Shown here: piece after piece, positions 7,475 to 25,181 of the stretch
How positions within the stretch are numbered: position 1 is the first letter of the stretch
Layout: each line of letters begins with the position of its first letter
Assembly: GCA_045220525.1 (NCBI GenBank)
Contig: JBGUVV010000338.1
Location: 1 to 34,570 of the forward strand
Source: Kiritimatiellia bacterium
GTDB lineage: Bacteria > Verrucomicrobiota > Kiritimatiellia > RFP12 > UBA1067
Direction of reading: 5' to 3'
DNA: 34,570 nt
Notes under the pieces: model-generated
The model's input: only the letters and a program-made list of their open reading frames with translations
Told to the model about the DNA's origin: nothing
Databases searched by the model: none
Program-made: the position numbers and the translations under genes

Positions 7475-7503
7475 ATTTTACCAAAAAGCCGCGCAACTAT
7501 CAA
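7475..7503 (-). promoter_or_regulatory. Putative sigma-70 promoter of the pcnB operon (leaderless-type spacing)
   Basis: The minus strand reads TTGATA (7503..7498), a 17-nt spacer, then TGgTAAAAT (-10 hexamer 7480..7475). Only 9 nt separate the -10 from the pcnB ATG at 7465, with no Shine-Dalgarno between them. Confidence 0.55.
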
Positions 7504-7519: not shown

Positions 7520-8374
7520 TCATAGATGGTTGGGCGTCATGTCGTAGTAGTCGAAGATGCGCTTGCGCACGCCGTTCGCGTCGATGCGCCTCAATCCTGA
7601 CTCGTATGCATCCACTACGGACTTGGCGAACTCCGGATCGAGGCCGGACACGTGCAGAAGCACAGGGTCGTTGGCGATGGGACGCGACGTCCTGAACCTC
7701 TGGAGTACGCGCGCCGACGTCATCTCCTGGGAAGCAGTCGAAGCCTCGCCGGTCGCAACGAACGCATCGGCCTTCCCCGCCTCGATTATCGCGGCTATGT
7801 CGCCGACAGAAGTGCCCTCCTCCACGATCTGGAAACGGTCAGATCCCTCTCCAAAGCGCTTCTGGCGGGCACGCATGACCTCGTAGTCGAGAAGGGACTC
7901 GTAGACGACAAGGCGCAGCTTGTCGAGCGACTCTGGCCCCGTGTAGCGCCACGGATTGCCGCGCAGCGTCTTGACTACGAGCGACGCCGTTGCCATAGGC
8001 GTAGGCGCGCGCACCGAGTGTTCCAGGGCGGGATGCGCTCCAAACCCGACCACGACGGCCGCAGGGTCTTCGGCAAGGACCTTGGCGAAACCTGCCACTG
8101 GGCAAGGGAGATATCGCACTTCCGCATGGGGGAATATCGCCCGCATGACGTCGAGAAGGACGCCGTTGCGGTTCGTTATCCTGTTTTCCACGGCGTAGTT
8201 CAGCCACCTTACGTAGTAGATGTGCACTCTTGGCTCGCCGGAGGATTCCGCCTTCGCCGCGACAGGCGAAGCTGGAACGGAGCCGACGTTCTTCGGAACC
8301 AGCCCCGAGATCATCTTCACCGCGAGAATCGCCACAAACGCAATGAGCAGCGCAATGTTCAGCTTCTTTATCAT
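7520..8374 (-). CDS. Membrane-anchored periplasmic substrate-binding-like (PBP type 2 / family 3 SBP-like) protein, last gene of the Tad-like operon
   Basis: The start at MIKKLNIALLIAFVAIL (8374) forms an ATGA overlap with the upstream stop. The overall pattern (YYVRWLNY..., LLDVMRAIF, later DAFVATGE) resembles orphan amino-acid-type SBP folds. The call is tentative. Confidence 0.5.
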   Translation of the reverse strand: MIKKLNIALLIAFVAILAVKMISGLVPKNVGSVPASPVAAKAESSGEPRVHIYYVRWLNYAVENRITNRNGVLLDVMRAIFPHAEVRYLPCPVAGFAKVLAEDPAAVVVGFGAHPALEHSVRAPTPMATASLVVKTLRGNPWRYTGPESLDKLRLVVYESLLDYEVMRARQKRFGEGSDRFQIVEEGTSVGDIAAIIEAGKADAFVATGEASTASQEMTSARVLQRFRTSRPIANDPVLLHVSGLDPEFAKSVVDAYESGLRRIDANGVRKRIFDYYDMTPNHL

Positions 8375-10158
8375 TTTCCAGCCTCCTTCCCGTCGTTTTT
8401 CCCGCCCGCGCCCAAAGACGACGTGCGTTCGACTTCGCGGACTGCCCACTTGTGGAACTGGTTGTCCTTGACGCCAAGCTTCAGCATCTCGTCAAGGACG
8501 GCCATCGTCTCCGGAGCGCCCGGCGAGACCGCCGCGCGCAGCCTGTATTCGGAGTAGAGCGACCTGTATTTCGCCGAAATCTCCTTGCGGGCGGCTGCGG
8601 CGCGGTCACGCCACTTCGCCAGCCGCGAAGCGTCCACTCCAATCGCCTCGCCGAGCTCGATCAGCCGCACGAGCGCAGAATCGCCGGCCGAGTCCGCGCG
8701 CTTGAAGAGGGCTCCTTCGATGATTTCCCTCTCTCGCTTCACCATCGGCGCAAACGACGCGTCAGACGGGTCGAATACGTCGACGAAGTCGGCCCACGCG
8801 GCGGCAAGCCCGTCGCCGGCGGAGGACTGATCCGACACGAACCTGTCGCGCGCAGGCACGAACGCGGAGAGGGCCTCCCAGCGCTCGTGGGCGAGGTCGC
8901 GCTCGCGGCGCACCGTCTCGCCCGACATGAACAGGTTGTCGGACATCCTGTCGAAACACTTCCCGAGGCGTTCCTTGGACTCTGCGAATCCGACTGTGCC
9001 CTCCTCCGCCGCCACCGCAAGGAACTTCGGCAGCTCCAACATGACGAAATCCATGATATCCTTGGCGTCGTCGTAGAAGCCGTCGGCGTCGCACTTCAGG
9101 AACATCGCGCGGTCGGAGCCGGCGAGGGTGTCCTTAAGGCGATTCCAGTCGCCCTTCTTGACGGCGCGCTGTATCGCGTCGACGTCCTTGAGGAAGCGCA
9201 GGATGTCCCTGACTTCCCTCTCCATGGCGGCGGCTTCCTCCCCCTGGATGTGCCCGAGCAGCTGCTCGCCGCGCCGGATGAGGTCAATGGTGACGGGAGA
9301 CGGCTCCGCCTTGAGTATCGAGGGGAACGTGCGGAAGCAAGCCAGCTGGTAGACGAACACGTCTTCATCCGTATGGGCGTGCTGCACGCCGTCCTCGGCG
9401 TACGGGCGGTCGATGCGGACGGCGCCGCTTCTGGCGGCGACGGACGCGTCGACGGACGCGGCCATGCGCGAAAGCGCGGCGGCGGCCAGGGCGACGGCAC
9501 CTACGACGACGAGGCCCAGCATCAGCGCGTAGCGAACCCCTCGCGCAGGCCACGCGAACGGGTTGCCGCTCTTGACGGCGGAGGCGGCGTCCGCGGCCTT
9601 GAGGACCATGCCCTGGAACGGACCTACTGAGAACAGCGTCGCATACGGAACGGAAAGCCTGCGCGACTCGCCGGTGACGACGTCGATTCCGTCGTTTGTC
9701 GGGAATATCTCGCAGAGCTCGGCGCCCGGCACGGCCGGGTTCACCGCATACGCCCCGCCGTCCGACTCGGCGACCGCGTTGCGGCCCTGCACAATGGGGT
9801 CGGCGGCGACGGCGCTTGAGCCAACGCGCCAGAGCAGCACATCGCCATCGGCGGAGCCTTCGCGCTCTATGCGGAATATCCAAGGCCCGAGCGCACAGGC
9901 GACGCCTGCCATGAGATGCATGTCCGGGGCGGTCTTCGGACCGGACGACACCGGCATGTCGGCCTTTGACGAGGCAAGCGTCCAGCCGTCCTCGTCTGGA
10001 ACGAGCGCACCGATTACGTCCGCCCCCTTTTCCACGATGTCGGCGAGAACCGGCGTCTCGCCGTCCGCGACGACCATCATCGGCCTGCGATCCCCGGAAA
10101 GGTCGCGCTCGAGGAGGGTTTTGCCCGCCGTAGAGTATAGCTTAAGGTTTTCCTGCAT
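8371..10158 (-). CDS. Hypothetical bitopic membrane protein (595 aa) co-transcribed with the Tad-like genes
   Basis: Strong RBS (GGAGGAGGG 7 nt upstream of the ATG at 10158). It has a ~215-aa N-terminal soluble domain, one TM (YALMLGLVVVGAVALAAAAL) and a ~355-aa helical acidic C-terminal domain. I recognise no family. Confidence 0.7.
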   Translation of the reverse strand: MQENLKLYSTAGKTLLERDLSGDRRPMMVVADGETPVLADIVEKGADVIGALVPDEDGWTLASSKADMPVSSGPKTAPDMHLMAGVACALGPWIFRIEREGSADGDVLLWRVGSSAVAADPIVQGRNAVAESDGGAYAVNPAVPGAELCEIFPTNDGIDVVTGESRRLSVPYATLFSVGPFQGMVLKAADAASAVKSGNPFAWPARGVRYALMLGLVVVGAVALAAAALSRMAASVDASVAARSGAVRIDRPYAEDGVQHAHTDEDVFVYQLACFRTFPSILKAEPSPVTIDLIRRGEQLLGHIQGEEAAAMEREVRDILRFLKDVDAIQRAVKKGDWNRLKDTLAGSDRAMFLKCDADGFYDDAKDIMDFVMLELPKFLAVAAEEGTVGFAESKERLGKCFDRMSDNLFMSGETVRRERDLAHERWEALSAFVPARDRFVSDQSSAGDGLAAAWADFVDVFDPSDASFAPMVKREREIIEGALFKRADSAGDSALVRLIELGEAIGVDASRLAKWRDRAAAARKEISAKYRSLYSEYRLRAAVSPGAPETMAVLDEMLKLGVKDNQFHKWAVREVERTSSLGAGGKNDGKEAGK

Positions 10159-10173
10159 GGCGTATCCCTCCTC

Positions 10174-11250
10174 CTACTCGGCGTCCTCGGCCGGAATCTT
10201 CGTTGCGAGGATGTCCGCCGCGCGGCGGGCGTCAAGCCTCTCGCCGGTCAGCGTGGCGTGCTTCATTATCCACTTCGCCTGCCGCCGCGCCTTCTGCCAG
10301 TCGCGCATGGCGACGGCCTTGTCCAGCACCACGAACCACTCGGCGACGTCGCGGTTGCGCTTGTCCAGCAGCGCCTTGTAGCGCGCGAACGCCTCCGAGC
10401 CAAGCGCGACGCGCTCCTGCCTGATCGACGACATGAGCGTCAGCGCCTCGCGGTAGTGGCGGAGGGCCGGCAGCAGCGCAGACTCCGGCTCCGACTCCAC
10501 GCGGGCTGCGAAGAGGTCCCACAGGGCCATTTCGCGTCCGATCTTGAGCTGCGTCGCCTCGTTGAGCTCGGCTGTCAGCCGCCCGGAGTGGACGACAGGC
10601 CTGTCGATCTGCTCGCGCAGATCGGGAAGGACCATGTTCTCGAACAACCCCCTGAAGAACTCCCTGGTCTCGGCCGACGCCACCTTGTCGTCGTCGGCCT
10701 GCAGCGCCCAGATGAGATAGCACACGTCGCCGGCGTAGAAGACAAGGCCCTCGCCATTATGCACCCCCGCGTCGAAAAGCATCCTGACCGCGCTGATGCC
10801 GGGCTTCACGGTCAAGATCTCCGTGCCGATGGCGGAGAGGACCATGTCGCCGACAATGCCCTTCAGGTGCTCCGAGGTGATGTCCTCGTCGAGCGTCTTC
10901 AATATCACCGTCGGATTCTCGTCCAGCGCATGATACGCAAAGCCCGGGTCGCGCAAGGCGTCGATGTGCAGCACCGGTGCCGCGTCCACGACGTTCTTGA
11001 ACACCGTGACCGAATCCTCCTTTACGGAATACGAAGCCCATCCTACGGGGAGCGTCACCGTGTAGAGCGGCATCTCCACCCTCGTCGGAGCTGGCTCCGC
11101 GAGCCGCCCACGCGCCTTCTGGAGCGCGCCGAAGGCGTTGTAGAGCCAGAGAAACGCGCAGAACAGCGCAAGCAGCACGAACGCGCCGAGCGCAACGCGC
11201 GCCGAATAGGCCGTCGGCACTATCGCCGGTTTTAGGTTTGTCTTGTCCAT
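10174..11250 (-). CDS. Hypothetical N-terminally anchored protein (358 aa) downstream of tadC
   Basis: TM at VALGAFVLLALFCAFLWLY, then a mixed beta domain (YTVTLPVGWASYSV...) and a helical, repeat-like C-terminus. Only 7 nt separate it from the tadC stop. I recognise no family. Confidence 0.7.
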   Translation of the reverse strand: MDKTNLKPAIVPTAYSARVALGAFVLLALFCAFLWLYNAFGALQKARGRLAEPAPTRVEMPLYTVTLPVGWASYSVKEDSVTVFKNVVDAAPVLHIDALRDPGFAYHALDENPTVILKTLDEDITSEHLKGIVGDMVLSAIGTEILTVKPGISAVRMLFDAGVHNGEGLVFYAGDVCYLIWALQADDDKVASAETREFFRGLFENMVLPDLREQIDRPVVHSGRLTAELNEATQLKIGREMALWDLFAARVESEPESALLPALRHYREALTLMSSIRQERVALGSEAFARYKALLDKRNRDVAEWFVVLDKAVAMRDWQKARRQAKWIMKHATLTGERLDARRAADILATKIPAEDAE

Positions 11251-11257
11251 TGTCTGT

Positions 11258-12142
11258 CTACCTGTTTAAGAACTGAATCAAGAGCGGTGCGAAGAGGACT
11301 ATGAATATGCCCGGAAGGATCAGCAGGAGGAGCGGGAACGACATGTTCACCACAGCCTTCTGCGCCCGGGCCTGCGCCTTGACGCGTGCGGAGTGGCGGA
11401 TGAGCGAGGCGGCGCTCCTGAGGTTGTCGGCGACGGACGTGCCCATCTCAAGGGACTGCGCAAGAGTCGAAAAGACCGCATTGGCCTCGTTGGTGCCCAC
11501 GCGCGAGGCAATGTTGTTGAGCGCCTGCGCGAGCGACGTGCCTATCGCGACCTCGGCGATGGCGCGGGAGAGCTCGTCTCGCACGGGGCCCTTCGCCGTC
11601 ACGTCGATGACGGCCCTGATGGCGGAAAGCAGGTCTCCGCCGGACTGCGCGACGAGCCTCATCACGTCGAGGGAGCCTGGAAGGTCGCGCGTAAAGCGCC
11701 TCGCGCGGTCCTGCGCCGCCGCCTTCAATGACGACTCGGGGTAGGCATAGAGCAGCACCGCGAACGCAACCGCAATGAATAGCGCCGCCGCGCCGGAAAG
11801 GCCCAGCAAGGCGCACAGCGGCACGATCACCGCGAAACCCAGCACGGGGAATACGAAGCGAGCCGCGAACACTTCCTCCGCCGTCGCGCCCTCCATGAAC
11901 ACTCCGCCCGCCTGCGTGACGAGCTTCTCTATCCTCTGGACCGCCTTGTCCATCTCGTGGTCGGTTTCGCGGCGCCGCGCCACGACGAGAGCCGGCAGGG
12001 CGAGGAGAGCCCTCAGCGCCGACCCGCCCTCGCGCATGCCGCGAGACGCGCCGAGCGTTTCCCTTGCGAGGATGAACGAGAGCGCCGCCGCCGAGACGGC
12101 GGAACAGGACAGCGCCACAACCATGTCAATGTCCAAGCCCAT
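11258..12142 (-). CDS. tadC: Tad platform protein TadC-like (T2SS-F domain)
   Basis: The T2SSF-type segment LPGSLDVMRLVAQSGGDLLSAIRAV...GTSLAQALNNIASRV and a C-terminal TM are typical of TadC/CpaH. It lies 4 nt after the tadB stop. Confidence 0.85.
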   Translation of the reverse strand: MGLDIDMVVALSCSAVSAAALSFILARETLGASRGMREGGSALRALLALPALVVARRRETDHEMDKAVQRIEKLVTQAGGVFMEGATAEEVFAARFVFPVLGFAVIVPLCALLGLSGAAALFIAVAFAVLLYAYPESSLKAAAQDRARRFTRDLPGSLDVMRLVAQSGGDLLSAIRAVIDVTAKGPVRDELSRAIAEVAIGTSLAQALNNIASRVGTNEANAVFSTLAQSLEMGTSVADNLRSAASLIRHSARVKAQARAQKAVVNMSFPLLLLILPGIFIVLFAPLLIQFLNR

Positions 12143-12146
12143 GCCG

Positions 12147-12884
12147 CTACACCCTTATGTCGACGATCTTGCGGATCCAGAGGTACGCCACCCCCTGCAT
12201 CCCGAACAGCACCAGAAGCGTGGCAAGCCCCGCCCCGGTCGTGAAGAGCGGCGCGACGAGCTCGCGCCTGACGAGCCCGAGTATGAGCATGAGCGCCATC
12301 GGCAGGGCGCTCATCACGATCGCCTGCATGCGCCCTTCCGTCGTCATGGCCCTCAGCTCGTCCTCGAAGGCGAGGTTGTCCCTCAAGAGCGCCGAGAGCA
12401 TCCTGTAGCTCTCGGCGAGGTTTCCTCCGCGCGCGACGCCGATCTTCGAGGCGATGACGACCATCTGCACGTCGGAGATGGGAACGCGCCTTGCGAAGTT
12501 GTCGAACGCGCCGCCGATGGAGAAGCCGAGCTTCGTGTCGTAGATGATCCTCGCGAACTCCTCCGCCATCGTCTGCGGGAAGTGCTCGAGGTTGCGCATG
12601 AGCGCCTGCGGCAGGGTAAGCCCGGCTGTGAGCGAGTTCGCCGCCATGTCGAGCGCGTCCGGCAGCTCCGCGCGAACCTTCGCCGCGCGCCGCGCGCGCA
12701 TCCGAACCGCGATGAACTCCGGCATGGCCGAGCCGGCGCCCGCGCGCGCCGCGCGCGCCATCAAGTCGTCGCCGTCGCCGCCATTCGCCTTTTCCGCCGC
12801 GTCAAGGCAGCCCTTCACCGCGATTCCGACGAGAACCGCGAGCGCCGCTATGGCGGCAAAGGCCAGCAATAGGTCGAGCGTCAT
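12147..12884 (-). CDS. tadB: Tad platform protein TadB-like (T2SS-F domain)
   Basis: The track ORF 12147..13676 is over-extended into cpaF. The ATG at 12884 (MTLDLLLAFAAIAALAVLV) forms an ATGA overlap with the cpaF stop. LPDALDMAANSLTAGLTLPQAL is the T2SSF motif. Confidence 0.85.
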   Translation of the reverse strand: MTLDLLLAFAAIAALAVLVGIAVKGCLDAAEKANGGDGDDLMARAARAGAGSAMPEFIAVRMRARRAAKVRAELPDALDMAANSLTAGLTLPQALMRNLEHFPQTMAEEFARIIYDTKLGFSIGGAFDNFARRVPISDVQMVVIASKIGVARGGNLAESYRMLSALLRDNLAFEDELRAMTTEGRMQAIVMSALPMALMLILGLVRRELVAPLFTTGAGLATLLVLFGMQGVAYLWIRKIVDIRV

Positions 12885-14479
12885 GACACCCCCGCGAATA
12901 TCGACTCGTCGAGCGGCACGCCCCTGAGCCGGAAGTCCTCGAAGAACGTTGGCCTTGCGACGACGACATGGCGCCCGAGCACCTTGCGCGTCTCGGGGTC
13001 GACGCCCTCGCGCTTGAACTCGAAAAGCGTCCTCAGCTTTGCATTGCCGTGCTCGTCGAGCCCGCAGACCTCGGCGATCTCTATCGTCTTGCGCGAGCCG
13101 TCGGAGAGCCGTGCGGTCTGCACGATGATCGACACCGCGCTCGCGATCTGCGCACGGATGGCCGAAAGCGGCATGTCCATGCCGGCCATGAGGCACAGCG
13201 TCTCGAGACGCGAGACCGTGTCGCTCGGCGTGTTGGCGTGCACCGTCGTGAGCGAGCCGTCGTGGCCCGTGTTCATCGCCTGTAGCATGTCGAGGGCCTC
13301 GCCGCCACGGCATTCGCCGACGACGATGCGGTCGGGCCTCATTCGCAGGCAGTTCTTCACGAGATGGCGTATCGAGACCTCGCCCTTGCCCTCGGCGTTC
13401 GCGGGGCGCGCCTCCATCCTTACGACATGGCTCTGCTGGAGCTTGAGCTCGAGCGAGTCCTCGACGGTGATGATGCGCTCCGTCGGGCCGATGCAGAGCG
13501 AGATCGCGTTCAGGAGCGACGTCTTTCCGGAGCCCGTGCCGCCGGAGACGACGATGTTCTTCCTCAGCGCGACGCACGCGTCGATGAACTTCATCATCTC
13601 GGGGCTCATCGACCCGAACGAGACGAGCTTGTCGAGCGTGAAGAGCGACTTTCCGAACTTTCGTATCGTCAGGCACGCGCCGTCGGGCGTGATCGGCGGG
13701 ATCACGGCGTTGACGCGCGAGCCGTCGACAAGGCGCGCGTCCACAAGCGGGCTCGACTCGTCGATGCGGCGGCCGACCTTGTTGACGATGCGCTCGATGA
13801 CGCGTATGAGGTGGCCGGGGTCGCGGAAGTGGCGGTCGGTCAACGCCACCTTGCCCTTGCGCTCGACGTAGATGTGGCGGTAGTCGATCACCATTATCTC
13901 GGTGATGGAGTCGTCGGCGATGAGCGGCTCGAGCGGCCCGAGGCGCAGCATGTCCTCGATCGTCTCGCGCTTGAGCTCCTCGACTACGCCCTTCTCGAGT
14001 CCTGCGAGCTCGGCCGTCCCGCGCGCGATCAGCTCGTCGAGGAACGACCCGATGCGCACCTCAAGTTCGCGCTCGTCGTCGGAGGTCGAGCTCGAGAGGT
14101 TGCGCGAGAGACTCGCGAGCGCATGCGAGTAGAGGATGTCGGAAGCCACCTCGCGGCGGCTCTTCCTGCCCTCCGACGCCTCGCACGAGACGTCGAACTC
14201 GAACGAGGCGACCTTGACGTGCGCCCCGGAGACGACGGGATCGGCGGCCGTCGCACGCCCGTTGACCTCGAGCCGCCCGTCGGCGGCCATGTCGCCGACC
14301 CACCAGACGCTGCCCATCGGCGAGAACGACACCTGCTGCGGCGCAAGGCCGAACTCCGCCGAGACGACGATGTCGCAGCTCGGGGCCGAGCCGAGCGTGA
14401 ACACCTCGCCTTGCTTCCCCTCCTGCGGGCTCAGAGTGGCTATGCGCTTGCCGTTCTGCGTGAATATGAGAGGTTTCAT
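12881..14479 (-). CDS. cpaF: CpaF/TadA-type secretion ATPase with an N-terminal FHA-like domain
   Basis: Walker A is GGTGSGKTS, and RPDRIVVGECRGGEALDMLQAMNTGHDGSLTTVHAN is the CpaF signature. The first ~100 aa (FTLGSAPSCDIVV...DGRLEVNGR...VSGAHVKVASFEFDV) have an FHA-like pattern. Confidence 0.92.
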   Translation of the reverse strand: MKPLIFTQNGKRIATLSPQEGKQGEVFTLGSAPSCDIVVSAEFGLAPQQVSFSPMGSVWWVGDMAADGRLEVNGRATAADPVVSGAHVKVASFEFDVSCEASEGRKSRREVASDILYSHALASLSRNLSSSTSDDERELEVRIGSFLDELIARGTAELAGLEKGVVEELKRETIEDMLRLGPLEPLIADDSITEIMVIDYRHIYVERKGKVALTDRHFRDPGHLIRVIERIVNKVGRRIDESSPLVDARLVDGSRVNAVIPPITPDGACLTIRKFGKSLFTLDKLVSFGSMSPEMMKFIDACVALRKNIVVSGGTGSGKTSLLNAISLCIGPTERIITVEDSLELKLQQSHVVRMEARPANAEGKGEVSIRHLVKNCLRMRPDRIVVGECRGGEALDMLQAMNTGHDGSLTTVHANTPSDTVSRLETLCLMAGMDMPLSAIRAQIASAVSIIVQTARLSDGSRKTIEIAEVCGLDEHGNAKLRTLFEFKREGVDPETRKVLGRHVVVARPTFFEDFRLRGVPLDESIFAGVS

Positions 14480-14494
14480 CGCTGCCCTTCCGTA

Positions 14495-15949: not shown

Positions 15950-15981
15950 TACAATCCTTTCATCCATTCATCATTGTAGAT

Positions 15982-16791
15982 TCAGTTCTGAAACGCCCTG
16001 ACCGTGTCGCCAAACGACACGCCGGGAGCGACCGTCACGTTTATGCGGTCCTGCTCGGTCTTAGTGTCGCGCACGTTCCTGAGGAGATAGGTGATCTGGC
16101 CCATCGTCCGCGCCTGCACCATCATGATCGCCGCCTTGGTGGGCAGCGCGAGCGTCATGGTGCCGTAGCCGGACGGGTTCGCCTCGAGGTCGTATTCGCG
16201 GTCGGCGGCGAGCACCGGGACGTTCTGGAGGATCACGCTCGAGACGACGCGTGCGCCGGCCGCCTGCGCAGCCTGGCCGACGACAAGGCCAAGCTTGTCC
16301 TCGGAGGCCGTTAGCACCACGTCGATGCGGCTTCCCGGGCGGATGAACCCGCAGACGGAGCTGACGGAGTCGACAGGCACGGTGACCGCGCGGCAGCCGT
16401 CGGGGATGAGGTCGGCGAACGGAGCCTTCTTGGCGGTCTCGATGTCGATCCAGAAGAGCGGGGTGTTCGCCGCGACGAGGCGCTTCGCCTTGCGCTTGAC
16501 GACCTTTTCGAGGACGTCGGCGAACGCCTTCTGGAATTCGGGCGAGCCCTTTGCGGGCAGGGCGATATGCATGTTGGATAGCGACTCGAACGGTATCTCG
16601 GCCGAGCCGAGCATCTCCTCGCCTATCTCCGAGCCCTCCTTTATCTCCATCGTCGCCACGAGGATGGACGCCTTCGGCGACGGCGGCACCGCTGTTTGCC
16701 GGGATATGTACTTGTTCACGGCCACTACCGCGAACAGGCCTACCAAAACCGCCGCGACTGCAGCGAGCTTTGTGTGGTTGTCAGTCTTCAT
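15982..16791 (-). CDS. cpaB: Flp pilus assembly protein CpaB/RcpC-like (SAF domain)
   Basis: N-terminal TM, then ILVATMEIKEGSEIGEEML (SAF-like) and the RcpC-like region VTVPVDSVSSVCGFIRPGSRIDVVL. AAGGAAAGGA RBS. Confidence 0.85.
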   Translation of the reverse strand: MKTDNHTKLAAVAAVLVGLFAVVAVNKYISRQTAVPPSPKASILVATMEIKEGSEIGEEMLGSAEIPFESLSNMHIALPAKGSPEFQKAFADVLEKVVKRKAKRLVAANTPLFWIDIETAKKAPFADLIPDGCRAVTVPVDSVSSVCGFIRPGSRIDVVLTASEDKLGLVVGQAAQAAGARVVSSVILQNVPVLAADREYDLEANPSGYGTMTLALPTKAAIMMVQARTMGQITYLLRNVRDTKTEQDRINVTVAPGVSFGDTVRAFQN

Positions 16792-17662
16792 CTTGGTTTC
16801 CTTTCCTTTGAATGTAAACTTCGTCGTCGGTGAAGCGGTAGTTGACGTCGCATCCGCCGCCCTCGCGCTGAACAGCCTCGTAGTAGAGGGTCAGGTTGTC
16901 CTTCGTCCAGCTCGCCGCGCCGCGGGGGCTGGACTTCTCGCCCTCGCCGGGGATCGCGCCAAACAGGCTCTCGCGCCAGCCGGCCTCTCGCGCGGCGGAC
17001 GACACCTTCCGCCGCGCCTCCAGCGCGGAGACGTCCGCCACGCAGTGGACGATAAGCGCCGCGCCCGCCCCTCTCTCGACGAGGTGGACGAGCAACGGGC
17101 TCCCGACCACTACATTGCGCAGGACCGGCGGCATCAGCTCCTTCACGCGCGCCGCGCTCCGCCGAGCGAGGTCGTCCGGCGTGACGACCTCCCCCGCCGT
17201 AGGCACGAGCTCCGCCGGTATCACGAAATCCTCCAGCAGCGTGTCGTTCCCCGCTATGGGCCTCAGCTCCCTGAGGGCGATCGACCCCTCCGGCGTCTTG
17301 TACACGCGCTCCATGCCGGAGAGGTTGCCTATCGTCAGGGCGTTCTCGTCGTCAAGACGCTCCCAACCGGCGCTCGCAGCCTTCTCCTCCGCAACGTCCG
17401 CCGCGAGGGAATACGGGATCCCAAGCCGTTCCGCGCGGCGGCGGACGGAAAGGCCCGCGATGTTGACGTGAAGCTCCTCCGGCACCATCTCGGCGAGCGA
17501 GTGCGCCCTCGGCGCTGGCACGACCGGCATCTCGACGGACCCGACGTCGCGCTCCGCGCGGTAGGCGCGGGTCATCGCGGCGCGGATCGTCCAGCGCACG
17601 GCCATGACCGCGGCGACGGCCACGGCCAGGGAAAGCGCCGTTCTCGCTATCTTGCCCTTCAT
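16781..17662 (-). CDS. Hypothetical N-terminally anchored protein (293 aa) between the pseudopilin genes and cpaB
   Basis: The track ORF 16781..17815 is over-extended. The ATG at 17662 (MKGKIARTALSLAVAVAAVMAV) overlaps the upstream stop by 1 nt (TGATG). I recognise no family. Confidence 0.65.
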   Translation of the reverse strand: MKGKIARTALSLAVAVAAVMAVRWTIRAAMTRAYRAERDVGSVEMPVVPAPRAHSLAEMVPEELHVNIAGLSVRRRAERLGIPYSLAADVAEEKAASAGWERLDDENALTIGNLSGMERVYKTPEGSIALRELRPIAGNDTLLEDFVIPAELVPTAGEVVTPDDLARRSAARVKELMPPVLRNVVVGSPLLVHLVERGAGAALIVHCVADVSALEARRKVSSAAREAGWRESLFGAIPGEGEKSSPRGAASWTKDNLTLYYEAVQREGGGCDVNYRFTDDEVYIQRKGNQDED

Positions 17663-18456
17663 CAGTTGACGAGCCCTTTCAGGAGCGGCTGCTTCGCGCA
17701 CCACGCCTTGAACTTCCGCACATACGTCTGCGGCGCGACGGGGACGGAGTCTATTACCGGCATGTAGCAATAGACGCGGTGGCGCTTGGAGGTATTCAGC
17801 TTCGAGCCGCTCCACGCGGCAGACGCGTGGCCATACTCGACGTCGTAGGCGAACTGCCCGACGCCTATGCGGCCGCCGCGCCTCTCGGGGAGCGAGATCG
17901 CCGAGTACGCGCCCGCAGGGAGGATAGTGTCGATGTAGACTGCGGTGGAGACCGCGACCTCGCGGTCGTGCGGCGGCACGTCGACGATGTAGTTTATCGT
18001 ACGGAACGTGACGAAGTTCATGATGCCGCCGAATATCTTGCCTACGAGCTTCCAGAACACGCTGCCGTCAGAGAAGGCCTTGCCGTTGAAGAAGTCGGAT
18101 ATCAGCCCGGACACGTACGTAATGGGGTTGTTTATCCGCTTGCAGCTGCCCTTCATGTACACGGAGCCGACGTCGGTGGCTACTTGGGCCACCCGGACGA
18201 GGTACTCCTTGCCTACGTTCTTGGCGGCGGAGCTCGGCGACGCGCCGCTGCCGTAGTAGTCGGCCATGTGGGCCTCGACGTCGGCGGCGAGGCGCGTGGC
18301 GACCTCGAGCTGCTGCTCGGTGCGGAGGATGCGAGTGAAGTCGGCCGCGAAGACGGCGGTGACGGCGACAAGCGGCGCGACGAAGGCGAACTCGAGCATC
18401 ACGCTCGCGCGTTCGCCGAAAAGCCGCAGCATTATCCGTCTTGCCGTATGGTCCAC
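17662..18456 (-). CDS. TadE-like pseudopilin/minor pilin (264 aa)
   Basis: GTG start at 18456 with an AAGGAGA RBS 5 nt upstream. The N-terminal GERASVMLEFAFVAPLVAV matches the TadE motif. Confidence 0.8.
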   Translation of the reverse strand: MDHTARRIMLRLFGERASVMLEFAFVAPLVAVTAVFAADFTRILRTEQQLEVATRLAADVEAHMADYYGSGASPSSAAKNVGKEYLVRVAQVATDVGSVYMKGSCKRINNPITYVSGLISDFFNGKAFSDGSVFWKLVGKIFGGIMNFVTFRTINYIVDVPPHDREVAVSTAVYIDTILPAGAYSAISLPERRGGRIGVGQFAYDVEYGHASAAWSGSKLNTSKRHRVYCYMPVIDSVPVAPQTYVRKFKAWCAKQPLLKGLVN

Positions 18457-18480
18457 GATGTCTCCTTAGCCTGTCTGGGA

Positions 18481-18489
18481 ATTATACCA
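18481..18489 (-). promoter_or_regulatory. Possible internal extended -10 promoter element inside the Tad-like operon
   Basis: The minus strand reads TGgTATAAT in the 41-nt gap between the TadG-like and TadE-like genes. It matches the extended -10 of the pyrH promoter over the 11-nt string TATGGTATAAT. There is no good -35. Confidence 0.35.
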
Positions 18490-18497
18490 TAAAACCC

Positions 18498-19679
18498 CTA
18501 GTGGTAGATGATGGCGTCGACAACGTAGCCAAACGCCTTGGCCCCCTTGTAGGCCACCTCCGACACTGGAACGAGCTTCGCCGTCGCGCCCGTGCCGAAC
18601 CCCGCCGGACGCTGGTTCGTCTTGTCGTCCTCGCTCTTCTTCGAGTGCGGCACCACGTCGCCGGTGACGCACTGCGCCGCCGCCACGGCGAAAACCGGGA
18701 ACTTGTGGGTCGTGCGGGACTTGTCGCCGTCGTTCAGGAACGCGTCTATCGGCATCGTGTGGATGTTCCCCGCGAACTTGAAGGCGATCCACATCACCGG
18801 GGCGGGCAGCACGTCGTCGTCCGTGACCTTGCCGCCGTCCATCTTGAGCCCCTCCTGGCTGCCGCGCTTCGAGACGTATGGCACGATCTCCCACGCCTTC
18901 CCCGCGCCGGTAAAGCTGTATATCTGCTTCCACGGGGAGTTCGACGACTCGAACACGCTTATCTTGCCCGCCTTCCACGGCGACTTCTTGGAGTCGGACT
19001 TCTCCGACTTGTCCAGCGGCAGGAAGAAGATGTCCTTGATGTTGTGAAACGACATGGGTATTGCGTAGAGACCGAGGTTCCACGAGTCGCCGTACTGCGC
19101 GGACGACGAGGCGGTGCTGAGCGCCGCGAGTGGATCCGCCTCGTTCTGCGCGGCGAGCTGCTGCGCGTTCCACACCCCGAACCAGGAAGACCCCCACACG
19201 TAGGCTATCTGTATGTACTTGAGAAACCTGTTGCATATCCACGTCGCCATCCAGCCTGCGGTCCCGCCGGCGATCACCGATATCGTGTGCATGGCGATCG
19301 CGAGCCCCTTGAAGATGATGCCCACGAACGGCGCGTTCGAAGCCGCGTCGAAGCCAAGCGCGATCGGCTCCAGCACCTTGGCTATGTTGCGCAGCTTCAC
19401 GGCGAGGGAAAGCGCCTCGTACATCTCGTCGTTTATGTTCTGCACGGCGTTCATGCCGCGCGCCTGCCATACGGCGTGCGCGAGCGCGGCGGAGTCCGCC
19501 GCGTTCTGGAGGCGCATCTTGGCCTTCGAGAGCTGCGCGGTGTTCCACGTCATCGTCAGCATCCCCATGACGAGGAAGATGACGAGAGCCACGACGACGC
19601 CGACGCTGCCGCGCTCGGAGGCAAGGCGCTCCGCGAGCAACTTTCCCGTTCCCCGTTTCCAGCTCCCCGTCAGTTCCAT
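18498..19679 (-). CDS. TadG-like protein (Tad_N-type N-terminus), 393-395 aa
   Basis: ERGSVGVVVALVIFLVMGM...LQNAADSAALAHA matches the TadG/Tad N-terminal motif. The ATG at 19679 lies 9 nt from GGAGG; the alternative GTG is at 19685. Confidence 0.8.
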   Translation of the reverse strand: MELTGSWKRGTGKLLAERLASERGSVGVVVALVIFLVMGMLTMTWNTAQLSKAKMRLQNAADSAALAHAVWQARGMNAVQNINDEMYEALSLAVKLRNIAKVLEPIALGFDAASNAPFVGIIFKGLAIAMHTISVIAGGTAGWMATWICNRFLKYIQIAYVWGSSWFGVWNAQQLAAQNEADPLAALSTASSSAQYGDSWNLGLYAIPMSFHNIKDIFFLPLDKSEKSDSKKSPWKAGKISVFESSNSPWKQIYSFTGAGKAWEIVPYVSKRGSQEGLKMDGGKVTDDDVLPAPVMWIAFKFAGNIHTMPIDAFLNDGDKSRTTHKFPVFAVAAAQCVTGDVVPHSKKSEDDKTNQRPAGFGTGATAKLVPVSEVAYKGAKAFGYVVDAIIYH

Positions 19680-22249
19680 ATCCACTTGCCTCCCGAATAA
19701 GTCTGGCGGTCCTTGTCGATGATCTGGCCCGAGTCGCTGCCGGGGGCGAGGGAGCCCGGCGAGTCCTCGGGAACCCCGTCGGCCTCGTCAACTACCTGGT
19801 CGGGCGTCTTGCCTTCGCGCTTCGCCTTGCCGGCGCTCGAAAGGCCCATCATCGCGCCATACTCGACCTCCTTCTGATAGGCGTCGTTGAGCTTCTGCTG
19901 GTAGGCGTTCAGCCTTGCAAGCATGTCGCGCGTGCCCTTGCCGATGTCATAGGGCATGTAGCCCGCCGGGATCTTGAATCCGGAGTCGCGCTCCGGGTCA
20001 AGGACGCGCAAGCTCTTCGCGGCCCCGACCATCCTGAGGCACGCGCGCGGGAAATGGGATTGCACGCAACGGGCGCGCGCGTCCATGAAGCCCTTGGCCG
20101 CGTTCTGGTATGTCGTCCACTCGTTCCTGAGCGCCTCCGCGGCGGCGTCGATCTCCTTGAGCTTGGACTTGAGCTTGGACTTGAGGATGGCCCACTTCTC
20201 CCGCGCCCTCTTCGCGGCGGCGTCGGGATCCTTCATCACCTCCTCGTCGGCGGGGTCGAACACGGGGTCGGTGTCGTCTCCGGTCCAGGACGACGTGCCG
20301 TGCTCCATGTTCTCGATGTCGGCGATTTCGTCCCTGACCAGCTTCGTGATGACGGCGAACGAGCCCTCGGCCTTCTTCGCCTTGTCCTGGATCTCGGCGT
20401 CCTGCTCCTTCCACGCCTCGAGGTCATGGCCCTCCTGCCACTTCACGAGGTTGTACACGTTCACCTTGTTGCGGTCGGCGAAGGCGCACACCTTTGCGTA
20501 GAGCGTCGATCTGTTGGCCTGCATGACGAAGACCCTCTGGTCGGACGGAACGGACGGATCGGCGACAAACTCGGCCACGCACGAGTTGAACACGGCCTGA
20601 TTGGCCAGGTATTTATTGCTGTAGCCGTTGATCGAGCTGTCCTTGTAGGCCAGCACCTTGCCCTGCCAGCCGTCGTACCAGGCGGCGAGGCCCGCGTTCC
20701 CGCTCGCGCTGCAGATGCTCTGGTGGTAGCTCTTGTGGTAGGAGCCGTCCCAGTGGAAGTAGTCGCGGTTGTGGTAGCTGTAGCCGCTGAAGTAGCCTTT
20801 TTCGTTAAGCGTGCTCGCCTTGGTGTCCTGGTCCCTGCCGTCGGTAAGCGCGCTCCAGCACCTCCCGTAGTCGCCGCCCACCGGGTAGCTGTCGCCGTCT
20901 TTCTCGTTGAATGACCACAGGTCCTTCAGCTCGGGAACGTACTTCCACCAGGTGGCGGACGCCACGTGGTACTTGCCGTCCCTGAACGACAGCGACTCGG
21001 TGCATATCCTGAACTTCATGCAGAACTTCACGTACTTGAGGTAGTCCTTCATCTCCTTGGCTATCTCGTCCAGCGCGGGGATCGACGTGCGGTTCGTGTA
21101 GGCGCCCGGGTCGAACGCCTTGGCCCCCTGGGAGTAGAGGTGCTCGTTCTGTATGTCGGGCTGCGGGAACACCATGCTGTGGCCCGTCGCGACCGGCCTC
21201 TTCGAAGACGCGACGCCGCGGCCGGACACCACCGGGAAGAGCCAGCCCGACTCGTAAGGCCAGTTGACCTCCACGTGGGCCATCGCAAGTCCGCCGTAGT
21301 TCGCAGGCCATCCGTGCGCCCCGGTGACGAAGAACCCGTCGCTCTTAGCCTCCTTGTCGACGACCTGCGGATAGACGAGGCGGCCGAGCGCGGCAAGCTT
21401 GGCGAACATGAAGGGGCCGTTCAGGTCGTCCATGTCGGTCACCGTGACGACCTCCTTGCCGATGGTCGACTTGGCCCGGGCGATCCTCACCGCCGCGCCG
21501 TATATCTGGCGGGCCATGCGCGCGCCGCCGCTCTTTCCGCTGAAAATCTCGTCGACCTTGATCCCGCCCTTCCCGAAGACGTTGTCGAATGCCGACTGCA
21601 GCGCGCTCTTTATCGCCTCCGCGATGGGCTTGAGCGCGACTTCCACGACCTTGTCGACAAGGTACTTCACAAGCTCGCTTACGAACTTCTCTATGCCCGT
21701 CCCGCCGCCGCTGAACGGGATCTTTATGTCGGCGACGGCGTTCTTTATCGTTTCGGCGATTCCGTCGGTCATCCCCTTGACCACGGCGTTGATGAGCGCG
21801 TCGAAGCCGTCGGCGAGCGCCTTCCCCGGGCTCGACCCGTAGTAGCCAATCCCGCATGTGGACATCAGGAATAGAGTCGCGATGTTGCCGCGGTTGTTGA
21901 ACTTGTTGGCCCCCTGGATCGCAGTGTCGAGGCCCGAAAGCGCCGCCTTGAGAGGAGCGGGGAGGGAACTGCCGGCGATGCCGGTCTTGGACTTCTTTGA
22001 AATGCCGCTTGAGTATTCGAGGCCGTCCGAGCCTCGCACCATGACGATGCGCCCGACCGTCCAGGCGGCGTGGTTCGCCATCACCTGCGCGTCCCAGAAG
22101 CCCACGATCTCGACAAGCGCGCTGCAGACGAGCACCAGGATCGGCGCGATGAGCGCGAACTCGGAAAACACCGACGCGCGAGGGGAGCCAAGTCTCCGCT
22201 TCGCGCGCTCAACTCGCTTGCCGTCGTTCCTCGTCAGCCACCGAAGCAC
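19670..22249 (-). CDS. Giant TadE-like protein (859 aa)
   Basis: GTG start at 22249, 9 nt after GGAG. The N-terminus RRLGSPRASVFSEFALIAPILVLV is a TadE motif. The remaining ~800 aa match no family I recognise: an aromatic/His-rich middle and a charged helical C-terminal third with a KSKLKSKLK repeat. Confidence 0.8.
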   Translation of the reverse strand: MLRWLTRNDGKRVERAKRRLGSPRASVFSEFALIAPILVLVCSALVEIVGFWDAQVMANHAAWTVGRIVMVRGSDGLEYSSGISKKSKTGIAGSSLPAPLKAALSGLDTAIQGANKFNNRGNIATLFLMSTCGIGYYGSSPGKALADGFDALINAVVKGMTDGIAETIKNAVADIKIPFSGGGTGIEKFVSELVKYLVDKVVEVALKPIAEAIKSALQSAFDNVFGKGGIKVDEIFSGKSGGARMARQIYGAAVRIARAKSTIGKEVVTVTDMDDLNGPFMFAKLAALGRLVYPQVVDKEAKSDGFFVTGAHGWPANYGGLAMAHVEVNWPYESGWLFPVVSGRGVASSKRPVATGHSMVFPQPDIQNEHLYSQGAKAFDPGAYTNRTSIPALDEIAKEMKDYLKYVKFCMKFRICTESLSFRDGKYHVASATWWKYVPELKDLWSFNEKDGDSYPVGGDYGRCWSALTDGRDQDTKASTLNEKGYFSGYSYHNRDYFHWDGSYHKSYHQSICSASGNAGLAAWYDGWQGKVLAYKDSSINGYSNKYLANQAVFNSCVAEFVADPSVPSDQRVFVMQANRSTLYAKVCAFADRNKVNVYNLVKWQEGHDLEAWKEQDAEIQDKAKKAEGSFAVITKLVRDEIADIENMEHGTSSWTGDDTDPVFDPADEEVMKDPDAAAKRAREKWAILKSKLKSKLKEIDAAAEALRNEWTTYQNAAKGFMDARARCVQSHFPRACLRMVGAAKSLRVLDPERDSGFKIPAGYMPYDIGKGTRDMLARLNAYQQKLNDAYQKEVEYGAMMGLSSAGKAKREGKTPDQVVDEADGVPEDSPGSLAPGSDSGQIIDKDRQTYSGGKWIWN

Positions 22250-22252
22250 GGC

Positions 22253-22747
22253 TTAGAACTCCTGGACGAAGACGGCTATAAGAGTGCCCAGGGTGATTGC
22301 AAGAGCATACGGCACCATCGGGGGGTTGCGAAGCCCCCTCGTCTTGCGCGGCATCCCCGCCATGATGCGGAAGACGTTCGCAAGAGTCGTCAAAAGAACG
22401 CCGTTCCACGCCATGATGGCGATTGCTATGAGGCCGCCCGCGATGCAGGTGTTGCAGACGACCCTAAGGGCCATCGGCCAGCCGACAATCGCGCCGACAG
22501 CCGCCATGAGCTTCATGTCGCCGCCGCCCACGACGCCCAAAAGGCAAAACGGGAGGAACAGCCCCCCCGCTATCGCCAGTCCAAGCGCGGACTCCGCAAG
22601 GCCGTCCAGGCCGCCCTCGATGCCGGCCGCCCCCACGCCGAGGGCGATCGAGCCCAGCGTGAGCCAGTTCGGAATCCTCCTCTCGCGTATCTCGCCGTAG
22701 CAGGCGAAGGCGAGGATGAACGGCAGGGATATCCAGACGATGGGCAT
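22253..22747 (-). CDS. tadV: Type IV prepilin peptidase, A24 family (CpaA/TadV-like)
   Basis: 164 aa and polytopic, with a GEIRERRIPN motif and GGGDMKLMAA (second catalytic Asp motif). Start codon overlaps the upstream gene's TAA stop by one nucleotide (minus-strand TAATG). Confidence 0.85.
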   Translation of the reverse strand: MPIVWISLPFILAFACYGEIRERRIPNWLTLGSIALGVGAAGIEGGLDGLAESALGLAIAGGLFLPFCLLGVVGGGDMKLMAAVGAIVGWPMALRVVCNTCIAGGLIAIAIMAWNGVLLTTLANVFRIMAGMPRKTRGLRNPPMVPYALAITLGTLIAVFVQEF

Positions 22748-22932
22748 TAGAAAATGGGAAGCTTTATGAGCATTTCCCTGAAGGAATAGTCAAGCCCCAT
22801 CCCCTTGAAGAACCAGCCGTTCGGCGTCATCAGCGTGACGGCGGCGCCAAGCATGATGAACGAGACGAGCGCGTATTCGAGATACACGCTCGCCCGTTCG
22901 GACCCGAGCCGACGCTTGAGTCGCTTAAGCAC
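22747..22932 (-). CDS. Mini TadE-like protein (61 aa)
   Basis: GTG start. KRRLGSERASVYLEYALVSFIML is nearly the same leader/TadE motif as the 859-aa protein (KRRLGSPRASVFSEFALIAPIL). There is no obvious RBS, so it is coding by homology of motif only. Confidence 0.55.
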   Translation of the reverse strand: MLKRLKRRLGSERASVYLEYALVSFIMLGAAVTLMTPNGWFFKGMGLDYSFREMLIKLPIF

Positions 22933-22938
22933 AGGACG

Positions 22939-23184
22939 TCAGTTCGTCTTCTGGCCGTTGTTGTTCTGGTTGTTGCCGCCGCTCTTGAAGCCCTGCGTCA
23001 GGTCGACCTTCTTGACCTCGACCGTCACCTTGTCGGTCTGGTCGCTGGTGGACGAGAACAGCTCCTTGAGCTTGTCGCCGAACAGCATGGCGGTCGTCGC
23101 GACGACGATGGCGACGAGGCCCGCGAGCAGCGCGTATTCAATGAACGTCGCACCCTTGCGGGCGCTGAATCCGATTTTCTTCAT
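22939..23184 (-). CDS. flp: Flp-family pilin, long form (81-aa precursor)
   Basis: MKKIGFSARKG/ATFIEYALLAGLVAIVVATTAMLF matches the Flp G/xxxxEY processing motif plus a hydrophobic helix. AAGGA RBS 8 nt upstream of the ATG at 23184. The hydrophilic C-terminal tail is unusually long and ends GGNNQNNNGQKTN. Confidence 0.85.
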   Translation of the reverse strand: MKKIGFSARKGATFIEYALLAGLVAIVVATTAMLFGDKLKELFSSTSDQTDKVTVEVKKVDLTQGFKSGGNNQNNNGQKTN

Positions 23185-23219
23185 TTTTGTTTTCCTTTTT
23201 GTTGGTACCAAAAAAAACT

Positions 23220-23244
23220 CGGCGTCACTTCGGCGTCACTTCGG
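23220..23244. repeat. 11-bp direct tandem duplication (CGGCGTCACTT x2.3) spanning the flp stop codon
   Basis: Read directly: 23220-23230 and 23231-23241 are identical, plus a partial CGG. On the minus strand this is GAAGTGACGCC GAAGTGACGCC followed by GAG and T8 (A8 at 23210-23217 on the plus strand). Confidence 0.9.
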
Positions 23245-23380
23245 TCGTCTTGTCGCCAAGCGAAGAGAAGAAATTGCAGATGCTCTTGCCGTATTTCATG
23301 ACGCCGACCGCGCCAACGATGCCGATCAACGCCGCCAGCAACGCGTATTCAAGGAACGCACTCCCCCTTTTCGCCCGCAT
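23225..23380 (-). CDS. flp: Flp-family pilin, short form (51-aa precursor; ORF could start as far up as 23410)
   Basis: [27 protein letters not shown] matches the Flp motif. GGAG lies 9 nt upstream of the ATG at 23380; in-frame ATGs at 23395 and 23410 lack an RBS. Confidence 0.85.
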
Positions 23381-23433
23381 TTTGCAAATCTCCATCTTTG
23401 TGTGCCGCATTTGAGAAACCGATTTCTTGCCGT

Positions 23434-23462
23434 ATTATATCAAAATCGCATATGACAGGCAA
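23434..23462 (-). promoter_or_regulatory. Putative sigma-70 promoter of the flp/Tad-like operon
   Basis: The minus strand reads TTGCCT (23462..23457), a 17-nt spacer, then TGaTATAAT (-10 hexamer 23439..23434), immediately downstream of the groEL terminator hairpin. Confidence 0.65.
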
Positions 23463-23464
23463 CA

Positions 23465-23492
23465 GGGGCTGCGGCCCAAAAGCCGCAGCCCC
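23465..23492 (-). terminator. Stem-loop terminator after groEL
   Basis: Perfect 11-bp GC-rich stem GGGGCTGCGGC / GCCGCAGCCCC with a 6-nt loop, 26 nt after the groEL stop. The trailing U-tract is weak (UGUUGCCUGU). Confidence 0.6.
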
Positions 23493-23517
23493 CGCATCTT
23501 GCCTTATGGCCGGCGCA

Positions 23518-25149
<1,632 letters not shown>

Positions 25150-25181
25150 TTCTTTATTCTCCAATTCCTTTTGTTAGGGTT

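Follow-up and report, generated by a model that had tools for sequence, protein, structure and literature searches.

A Tad-like pilus operon with FHA-type components and no local TadZ in a Kiritimatiellia bacterium

What kind of machine is encoded by a Tad/Flp-like operon that carries its own pilins, secretin and motor, has no recognizable TadZ, and includes several membrane-anchored proteins of no familiar family? The question is raised by a contig of 34,570 nucleotides (nt) from a Kiritimatiellia bacterium (JBGUVV010000338.1, assembly GCA_045220525.1), referred to here in its entirety as the window, in which 16 minus-strand open reading frames (ORFs) run from position 23410 down to 7520. The reading favored here, with a probability of roughly 55%, is that the 16 genes make up one complete operon for a Tad-like (type IVc) pilus of a distinct Kiritimatiellota/Lentisphaerota subtype, in which a scaffold of FHA-type domains takes the hub role of TadZ and the output is an adhesive pilus. 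An initial annotation of this DNA had described an atypical machine with orphan components and a potentially divergent function; it is possible that the role has diverged from that of an adhesive pilus.

The 16 genes are all co-directional, and the distances between them are, in order, 40, 6, -1, 3, -16, 41, -1, -11, 14, 15, -4, 4, 7, 15, and -4 nt, with 41 nt as the largest spacing. Start and stop codons overlap as ATGA or TGATG at four junctions, including ATGA at 12881-12884 and 8371-8374 and TGATG at 17660-17664. A near-consensus sigma-70-type promoter on the same strand (23434-23462) consists of TTGCCT and TATAAT separated by 17 nt, with an extended -10 TG; it matches 10 of 12 hexamer positions, relative to 0.2 such sites expected from shuffled sequence. 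The initial annotation’s coordinates, gene counts, maximum spacing, and promoter were all correct, and its claim of a complete Tad/Flp-type machine was likewise borne out, as all core families were matched through Pfam, NCBIfam, and processing-site motifs. These two databases served as the profile libraries throughout, and several of the matches, namely Flp1 and both TadE proteins, fall below the curated Pfam cut-offs.

Seven of the products form the pilin end of the operon. The first Flp pilin (23225-23410; 61 amino acids (aa) as called) has the processing site G/SAFLEY, the slash marking the point of cleavage, and reaches 19.9 bits against Pfam Flp_Fap, below the cut-off; its orthologues are 55-57 aa long, so that translation probably begins at an internal Met, and those in two related loci, L022 and L023, match Flp_Fap. 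The second Flp pilin (22939-23184; 81 aa; G/ATFIEY) exceeds the cut-off at 37.5 bits. The third gene (22747-22932) encodes another 61-aa protein without a family match, with one hydrophobic helix and the N-terminus ERA/SVYLEY. L022 and L023 have its counterpart in the corresponding place (61% and 48% identity, respectively), and the (E/P)RA/SVxxE[FY] N-terminus is common to this product and the two TadE-like proteins; on account of its conserved place and its N-terminus, it is read as a mini-pilin. A prepilin peptidase of the TadV/CpaA type (A24) follows (22253-22747; 164 aa; five membrane helices; Pfam Peptidase_A24, 6e-19). The minor pilins include a giant of 859 aa (19670-22249), in which a TadE-like N-terminus (PRA/SVFSEF) is followed by about 800 aa without a family match, a TadG-like protein of 395 aa with a PF13400 N-terminus (18498-19685; Pfam Tad, 6.8e-9; NCBIfam tadE_like_DECH, 1.7e-6), and a TadE-like protein of 264 aa (17662-18456; ERA/SVMLEF; Pfam TadE, 3.7e-4, below the cut-off) with a conserved position. 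Specifically, the 859- and 264-aa proteins score 20-21 bits against TadE, for which the cut-off is 22.9 bits. For the giant protein, this sub-threshold match is supported by its orthologues, of which 23 of 26 match TadE (best, 9e-7), and the TadE-like label it had been given therefore stands; the roughly 800 aa beyond the TadE part found no match in the PDB or Pfam.

The giant protein had also been listed as an oddity, and this part of the initial annotation was not upheld. In work on Kil, trimers of TadE/F/G-like proteins were shown to make up the pilus tip, and a novel domain is displayed there by the one large subunit (Herrou et al. 2025, PMC12075869). By analogy, the 859-, 395-, and 264-aa trio fits this pattern, which would make the giant protein not anomalous in kind.

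The envelope and motor components are no less readable. CpaB/RcpC (15982-16791; 269 aa) matches Pfam RcpC at 8.5e-22, and the RcpA/CpaC-type secretin (14495-15967; 490 aa) matches Pfam Secretin at 2e-25, with a weak BON match; the latter has an ordinary signal peptide (AQA) and no lipobox. The CpaF/TadA motor ATPase (12881-14479; 532 aa) carries an N-terminal FHA-like domain (residues ~1-98) and a linker ahead of its core; it matches T2SSE at 3e-59, its best NCBIfam match is the TadA family, and residues 140-522 match solved C. crescentus CpaF structures at 2e-112, thereby placing the start of the CpaF core at residue 140. The platform is split into two adjacent, single-domain T2SSF proteins, TadB (12147-12884; 245 aa; 2.5e-11) and TadC (11258-12142; 294 aa; 3e-16). 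Together with canonical Tad systems, such as Aggregatibacter tad, Caulobacter cpa, and Pseudomonas rcp/tad, the locus thus shares Flp, a short A24 peptidase, TadE/F/G-type minor pilins, RcpC/CpaB, an RcpA/CpaC-type secretin, CpaF/TadA, and a split TadB/TadC. Unlike those systems, it lacks TadZ/CpaE, the TadD/CpaD pilotin lipoprotein, and RcpB, and it adds an FHA-like motor extension, four anchored proteins, and the 859-aa minor pilin.

The absence of these components was claimed from the letters alone and holds under profile searches for the locus itself and for the syntenic loci of relatives, with one 34.6-kb contig representing the host genome. The only genuine Walker A motif among the 16 proteins is GGTGSGKT at residue 313 of CpaF, and GVMKYGKS in the 61-aa Flp1 was dismissed as a chance match in a small pilin. 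No ParA/CbiA/AAA_31 (ParA/MinD-type), TPR, CpaD, or RcpB match was obtained for any of the 16 proteins with Pfam or NCBIfam, and the motif scan found no lipobox in a signal-peptide context among them; the only such string, ALSC, lies inside the first membrane helix of TadC. Nor was a TadZ or TadD found hidden among the orphans, as none of these is a homologue of TadZ/CpaE or TadD/RcpB: they show no family match to them, no Walker A, and no lipobox, and their folds, where assigned, are FHA and PsbP-like. Two further candidates were considered outside the operon. The first, a TPR protein at 5650-6270, was rejected as a TadD substitute, since it has no lipobox and follows the unrelated gene for a CCA-adding enzyme, which has its own promoter-like site; it never occurs alongside the operon in relatives. 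The second, a ParA-family gene in the related locus L024 (19452-20330), lies 7 kb downstream with unrelated genes on both strands between, and by judgement is Mrp/NBP35-like rather than TadZ.

What, then, might take the place of TadZ, which is regarded as an ancestral Tad component and recruiting hub and is normally encoded adjacent to tadA? A candidate is suggested by the two FHA-type proteins of the operon, one of which is the motor itself. Residues 24-96 of CpaF match both Yop-YscD_cpl, the cytoplasmic domain of YscD, and FHA below the cut-off, and the N-termini of 11 of 13 CpaF orthologues match Yop-YscD_cpl, the best at 1.8e-4 and all below the cut-off. A Lentisphaerota orthologue (L024, 5352-7007; 52% identical) has a precomputed Pfam FHA match at E<=1e-5. 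The FHA-like fusion proposed by the initial annotation is supported. The order of FHA-type domain, linker, and CpaF core is the layout of class III CpaF, which has been reported mostly from betaproteobacteria (Nat Commun 2025, PMC12019362). The window protein shares these three parts with class III, and it differs in its lineage within the Planctomycetes-Verrucomicrobia-Chlamydiae (PVC) group and in an FHA domain apparently without the residues for binding phosphothreonine (pThr), as read by eye. FHA domains typically bind pThr through Gly-Arg, Ser-x-x-His, and Asn-Gly. Where R, S..H, and S.N are expected, the window CpaF has G-S, L-A-P-Q, and A-D-G, and the FHA domain of the rumen-clade CpaF may have lost its usual pThr-binding residues, as compared by eye with the consensus. 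The FHA match is at Pfam level in the Lentisphaerota copy L024 and sub-threshold in the copies from rumen Kiritimatiellae, which have Gln in place of the conserved His; this suggests that the domain may have degenerated progressively within the subtype.

The second FHA-type protein is one of the orphans, a 595-aa product (8371-10158) for which an AlphaFold2 model was built from 20 homologues (predicted local distance difference test (pLDDT), 79). In this model, a beta-rich N-terminal region of FHA fold (residues 1-187), probably comprising two tandem domains, is followed by a helix (206-241) and a helical C-terminal domain (264-583). The hydrophobic segment at 211-229 falls inside helix 206-241, and this is the protein’s sole membrane helix. 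With Foldseek, the beta region retrieved the FHA domains of Ki67, FhaA, GarA, and ArnA (probability 1.0; target template-modelling score 0.6-0.66), and the helical part returned only weak TPR-like matches. By the same reading by eye against the consensus, G-R is retained and there is no S-x-x-H. As no signal peptide is present, the FHA-fold region is predicted to lie in the cytoplasm and the helical domain in the periplasm.

Family-level evidence for this protein extends well beyond the window. Its homologues fall into 108 clusters, with identities of 37-88%; the intact members are full length, and no functional name or Pfam domain was found among them. A profile of the family, searched against 1.84 billion representative proteins, gave 61 matches, about 30 of them full length. 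Among these, P0370 (739 aa; 1e-14), one of the weakest matches, and P0365 have a Pfam-significant FHA domain. Furthermore, the distant relatives P0370 and P0353 occupy the same operon slot, after tadC and beside an FHA-CpaF. An analogy may be drawn with PrgH/YscD of the type III secretion inner ring, which are alike in having a cytoplasmic, degenerate FHA fold, one membrane helix, and a periplasmic domain, and YscD’s cytoplasmic domain is also the best Pfam family for the window CpaF N-terminus. The 595-aa protein differs in having only helices in its periplasmic part, in contrast to the ring-building alpha/beta motifs of PrgH/YscD, and the resemblance is one of analogy only.

The remaining orphans proved more or less tractable. 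No Pfam or NCBIfam match at E<=0.1 was obtained for the window copies of the 293-, 358-, 595-, and 284-aa proteins, and profiles of these four families and of the 859-aa family found nothing significant among PDB sequences; paralogy among the orphan families was rejected, as none emerged from profile-profile comparison. The 358-aa anchored protein (10174-11250) was modeled with AlphaFold2 (pLDDT 84; predicted template-modelling score 0.73) as a membrane helix (14-51), a PsbP/Mog1/DcrB-like alpha/beta domain (57-205), and a helical bundle (227-350). Foldseek matched the alpha/beta domain to PsbP, CyanoP, and DcrB at E-values of 6e-7 to 7e-4 and to EagT6 at 2e-3 to 5e-3, with a probability of 1.0 throughout save 0.99 for one EagT6 chain. 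The PsbP-like call is one of fold only, as no sequence-level family match was found for the protein. Its family comprises 107 homologue clusters, full length and without a functional name, with weak homologues in L024 and L026. As a side observation, the 358- and 595-aa genes (8371-11250) share a reading frame at a distance of 15 nt, and the homologous pair is also adjacent in L026, a short and distant contig.

The 284-aa protein (7520-8374), the product of the last operon gene, is membrane-anchored and had tentatively been called a substrate-binding protein (SBP). This call gained ground through its orthologues, as 5 of 16 match SBP_bac_3 (best, 5e-5) with no match for the window copy itself; the family also drew a weak PDB match (E 1.4), to the substrate-binding domain of an amino-acid ABC system. 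A homologue is present in L027 (26% identity; E 2e-24), and the gene is absent from L024. Residues R69-N70-G71, T136-x-R138, D163, and D203 are invariant in the family alignment, and it is tempting to speculate that they might represent a retained ligand pocket. The orthologue in L007 (11797-12741) has a (PSQ)n low-complexity tail that is missing from the others.

Finally, the 293-aa protein (16781-17662) has one N-terminal transmembrane anchor, a presumed periplasmic domain of about 250 aa, and no family match. Its gene always lies directly upstream of cpaB and is syntenic in all loci, at 28-70% identity. In L024 and L027, a gene of the same size (282 and 308 aa) occupies this position with 22% and 18% identity, respectively; no tblastn match at E<=0.01 links these counterparts to the window protein, so the correspondence is one of position and size alone. 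A Pfam search with 12 sequences (10 orthologues plus the L024 and L027 counterparts) yielded scattered, single chance matches only. Of the three anchored proteins that the initial annotation could not place, the 293-aa protein indeed gave nothing in the sequence searches, whereas the 595-aa protein has acquired an FHA fold and the 358-aa protein a PsbP/Mog1-like domain.

Are these proteins parts of the machine or passengers within its operon? In a survey that took one genome per GTDB species, 18 loci were found, all in rumen or gut metagenome-assembled genomes. Those that carry a lineage label are named Kiritimatiellae, Lentisphaerae, or Verrucomicrobia, with the exception of one short contig binned as Clostridiales. 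Genes 5-16 occur in the same order in 13 of 13 long related loci, and L023 retains all 16 genes in order as far as its contig runs, with an 859-aa homologue that is 32% identical; the 859-aa family as a whole comprises 96 homologue clusters, all full length and without a functional name. The genes flanking the operon differ between loci, and the operon unit is on this basis taken to end at the 284-aa gene. Because the whole gene order recurs while the flanks differ, the orphans are regarded as integral parts. More distant copies occur in Lentisphaerota. In the loci of P0370 and P0353, the order is minor pilins, 282/308-aa protein, RcpC, secretin, FHA-T2SSE, TadB, TadC, 346/362-aa protein, and FHA protein; P0370 belongs to Lentisphaerota bacterium ZTH, which has a complete 3.2-Mb genome (CP119760.1) and carries locus L024. 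Since such distant copies hold the same operon slots, the subtype is judged from gene order to predate the rumen clade, and not every member carries the SBP-like gene. The orphans thus keep fixed positions alongside FHA-CpaF across the loci of relatives, apart from the SBP-like gene missing from L024. The gene set is common in one clade, yet it is unnamed and undescribed in the literature searched: no Tad or Flp system of Kiritimatiellota or Lentisphaerota appeared among the top-ranked search results, and the main text of the survey by Denise et al. (2019) does not mention Verrucomicrobia, Planctomycetes, or Lentisphaerae.

This conservation bears directly on the simplest alternative, in which the locus is an ordinary Tad adhesion pilus with TadZ and the pilotin encoded elsewhere, and the extra proteins are peripheral, lineage-specific add-ons for regulation or sensing. 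A single 34.6-kb contig of the genome is visible, and the TXSScan model permits multi-locus Tad systems and counts tadD, rcpB, and rcpC as accessory. Likewise, the SBP-like last gene is missing from Lentisphaerota bacterium ZTH and so is dispensable for the subtype, and its fold suggests sensing. TadZ is, however, normally encoded beside tadA, and none was found within 10 kb of the operon in about 15 long loci from divergent species. Moreover, the 293-, 358-, and 595-aa genes stay at fixed core positions even at 52-63% CpaF identity, as is typical of structural parts, and the FHA fusion on the motor co-occurs with an FHA-fold partner. An ordinary Tad pilus with outlying TadZ therefore appears unlikely, although it deserves serious consideration.

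The closest described system is the Kil apparatus of Myxococcus, in which an FHA-ATPase, the absence of TadZ, TadD, and RcpB, a short secretin, and many genes of unknown function have been reported (Seef et al. 2021, PMC8460266). Its FHA proteins include KilD (FHA plus TPR), MXAN_4648 (FHA plus TPR), and MXAN_4649 (FHA, PrgH-like), the latter two of which adjoin the platform genes. With Kil, the window locus shares an N-terminal FHA domain on a single ATPase, the lack of TadZ, TadD, and RcpB, accessory FHA proteins with helical or TPR regions (compared by description), three TadE/F/G-like minor pilins of which one is large with a novel distal domain, and many conserved genes of unknown function. 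By inference from the published table, Kil cluster II, when read along descending locus tags, appears to follow almost the same order as the operon of the window: minor pilins, unknowns, CpaB, TadB, TadC, and two accessory genes, the second of them FHA plus helical. These parallels temper the claim of an atypical machine; the unusual features are all present, but an FHA-ATPase, the lack of TadZ and TadD, and FHA partners had already been described for Kil, and FHA-CpaF corresponds to class III.

There are also differences from Kil. Kil is split into two clusters whereas the window locus is a single operon; KilD is described as cytoplasmic whereas the FHA-fold accessory protein of the window spans the membrane; and the large minor pilin of the window has a TadE-type rather than a TadG-type N-terminus. 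No counterpart of the PsbP-like or SBP-like component is listed for Kil, and the host is a PVC gut anaerobe rather than a predatory member of Myxococcota or Bdellovibrionota. When aligned to two blocks of a published supermatrix, CpaF was 42-49% identical to every reference clade (Myxococcus, 46.8%; Caulobacter, 45.9%). In a neighbour-joining tree of 185 CpaF columns, the Kiritimatiellae form their own clade with 100% bootstrap, which joins outside a group of Kil, Bdellovibrio, Bradymonas, and beta/gamma sequences with 58% support; the placement comes from one protein and a simple method. A position inside the Kil clade is not supported by this tree or by the even identities, and since the tree does not nest the locus within Kil, the locus is filed as a separate Tad-like subtype with an FHA theme, rather than a member of Kil.

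Could it nevertheless function as Kil does? According to this proposal, the locus would encode a machine for contact-dependent killing or cell targeting, in which the 859-aa tip recognizes cells and the FHA proteins gate assembly on contact. The common FHA-ATPase, FHA accessory protein, lone ATPase without TadZ, and missing TadD/RcpB all speak for it, as does the run of cpaB through tadB-tadC and two accessory genes, which parallels MXAN_4652-4648, and a large, variable minor pilin that resembles KilN. Set against these likenesses is the CpaF branch of its own, as well as the report of Kil-type systems and tips only in Myxococcota, Bdellovibrionota, and Bradymonadales. In addition, prey killing by Kil depends on a needleless type III system, and no type III genes are seen in the window. 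The hosts are saccharolytic gut anaerobes that are not known to be predatory. A killing or cell-targeting role appears very improbable.

How would the favored machine, an adhesive pilus built around an FHA scaffold, work? The 859-, 395-, and 264-aa minor pilins would form a tip or initiation complex comparable to those of TadE/F/G and KilL/M/N, with the roughly 800-aa novel part of the largest subunit exposed at the end of the pilus. In the cytoplasm, the FHA-like domain of CpaF may join with the FHA-fold domains of the 595-aa protein into a protein-protein scaffold by which the motor is docked at the platform, thereby filling the hub role that TadZ has elsewhere. This binding is probably phospho-independent, because both FHA-like domains appear to be without the usual pThr-binding Arg/Ser/His/Asn set. 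No kinase or phosphatase gene is present within the window. The periplasmic parts of the 595-, 358- (PsbP-like), and 293-aa proteins may link the platform to CpaB and the secretin, and the anchored SBP-like protein might be a sensor for a small ligand or no more than a further piece of the periplasmic scaffold. The likeliest product would be a dynamic pilus that adheres to rumen particles or other cells.

Several points weigh against this picture. The machine is known here from its genes and predicted folds, and the scaffold role of the FHA proteins is proposed from their architecture. Sequence support for FHA in the window copies is weak, with Pfam matches below the curated cut-offs, and the Foldseek E-value for FHA is about 0.01 because only one sixth of the 595-aa model aligns. 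The pThr-binding residues were read by eye against a consensus, the membrane topology follows from a hydropathy scan and a missing signal peptide, and neither the 293-aa protein nor most of the 859-aa protein has a match to a family or a PDB sequence. Finally, the host genome could carry a gene for TadZ or TadD outside this contig.

A different output has also been considered, namely a Tad-derived secretion device in which a short pseudopilus drives substrates out via the secretin in the manner of a type II system. The secretin without a pilotin is compatible with this, as are several large periplasmic accessory proteins, including one with a PsbP/DcrB/EagT6-like fold, given that some such proteins are secretion-system chaperones; possible secretion roles have also been discussed by the Kil authors. 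Yet the operon opens, after a strong promoter, with two to three classic Flp pilins bearing G/xxxxEY sites, much as Tad loci that form pili do, no candidate substrate gene occurs in the operon, and Pfam and NCBIfam revealed no GspC/L/M-type parts. Secretion as the main function would therefore come as a considerable surprise. In a bolder version of the FHA-scaffold reading, the subtype would be a third independent branch of FHA-organized Tad machines, carried by gut Kiritimatiellota and Lentisphaerota, in which a membrane FHA protein replaces TadZ, and the SBP-like protein and giant tip pilin make for a signal-gated, target-specific pilus, possibly used, as in Kil, to attack or seize cells or specific glycan particles instead of serving plain adhesion; this combination is intriguing but decidedly doubtful.

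Tad pili are major colonization devices, and a TadZ-less subtype with paired FHA proteins suggests a second way to organize the machine. The FHA-rich theme, so far described for the predatory Kil system, is hereby extended to non-proteobacterial gut anaerobes, which would supply a naturally occurring example of a Tad machine without TadZ beyond the Proteobacteria and the predatory groups related to them. Likewise, first fold assignments, tentative in the last case, are now available for three unnamed families (358, 595, and 284 aa), of which the 358- and 595-aa families comprise about 100 clusters each without a Pfam domain. The same subtype is carried by the complete genome of Lentisphaerota bacterium ZTH.

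The operon resides in chromosomal DNA with a G+C content of about 63% across the window, in which no tRNA or Rfam element was found. Upstream and on the same strand are dnaK, groES, and groEL. The stretch from the groEL stop (23518) to the promoter of the operon contains a perfect GC-rich hairpin on the minus strand (23465-23493), GGGGCTGCGGC-TTTTGG-GCCGCAGCCCC, without a T-run and absent from the output of the terminator scan; it may be where transcription of dnaK-groES-groEL ends, which would shield the pilus promoter. On the 3' side of the operon, no terminator-like site was found. The gene for a CCA-adding enzyme/poly(A) polymerase (6254-7465, minus strand) begins 54 nt past the last operon gene, and this gap contains a promoter-like TTGATA-17 nt-TAAAAT with TG (7475-7503, minus strand). 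The gene for the 206-aa TPR protein (5650-6270, minus strand), which in relatives is unlinked to the pilus operon, starts 17 nt inside the 3' end of the gene for the CCA-adding enzyme. Farther away, a 396-aa ORF (31451-32641, minus strand) without a Pfam match adjoins ABC-2 type transporter genes (28518-31428). Finally, two long plus-strand ORFs run antisense to real genes, one of 858 aa (13364-15940) opposite the secretin and CpaF genes and one of 1002 aa (23398-26406), with no Pfam match, opposite groEL and dnaK; both look like the shadow ORFs that are typical of high-GC DNA.

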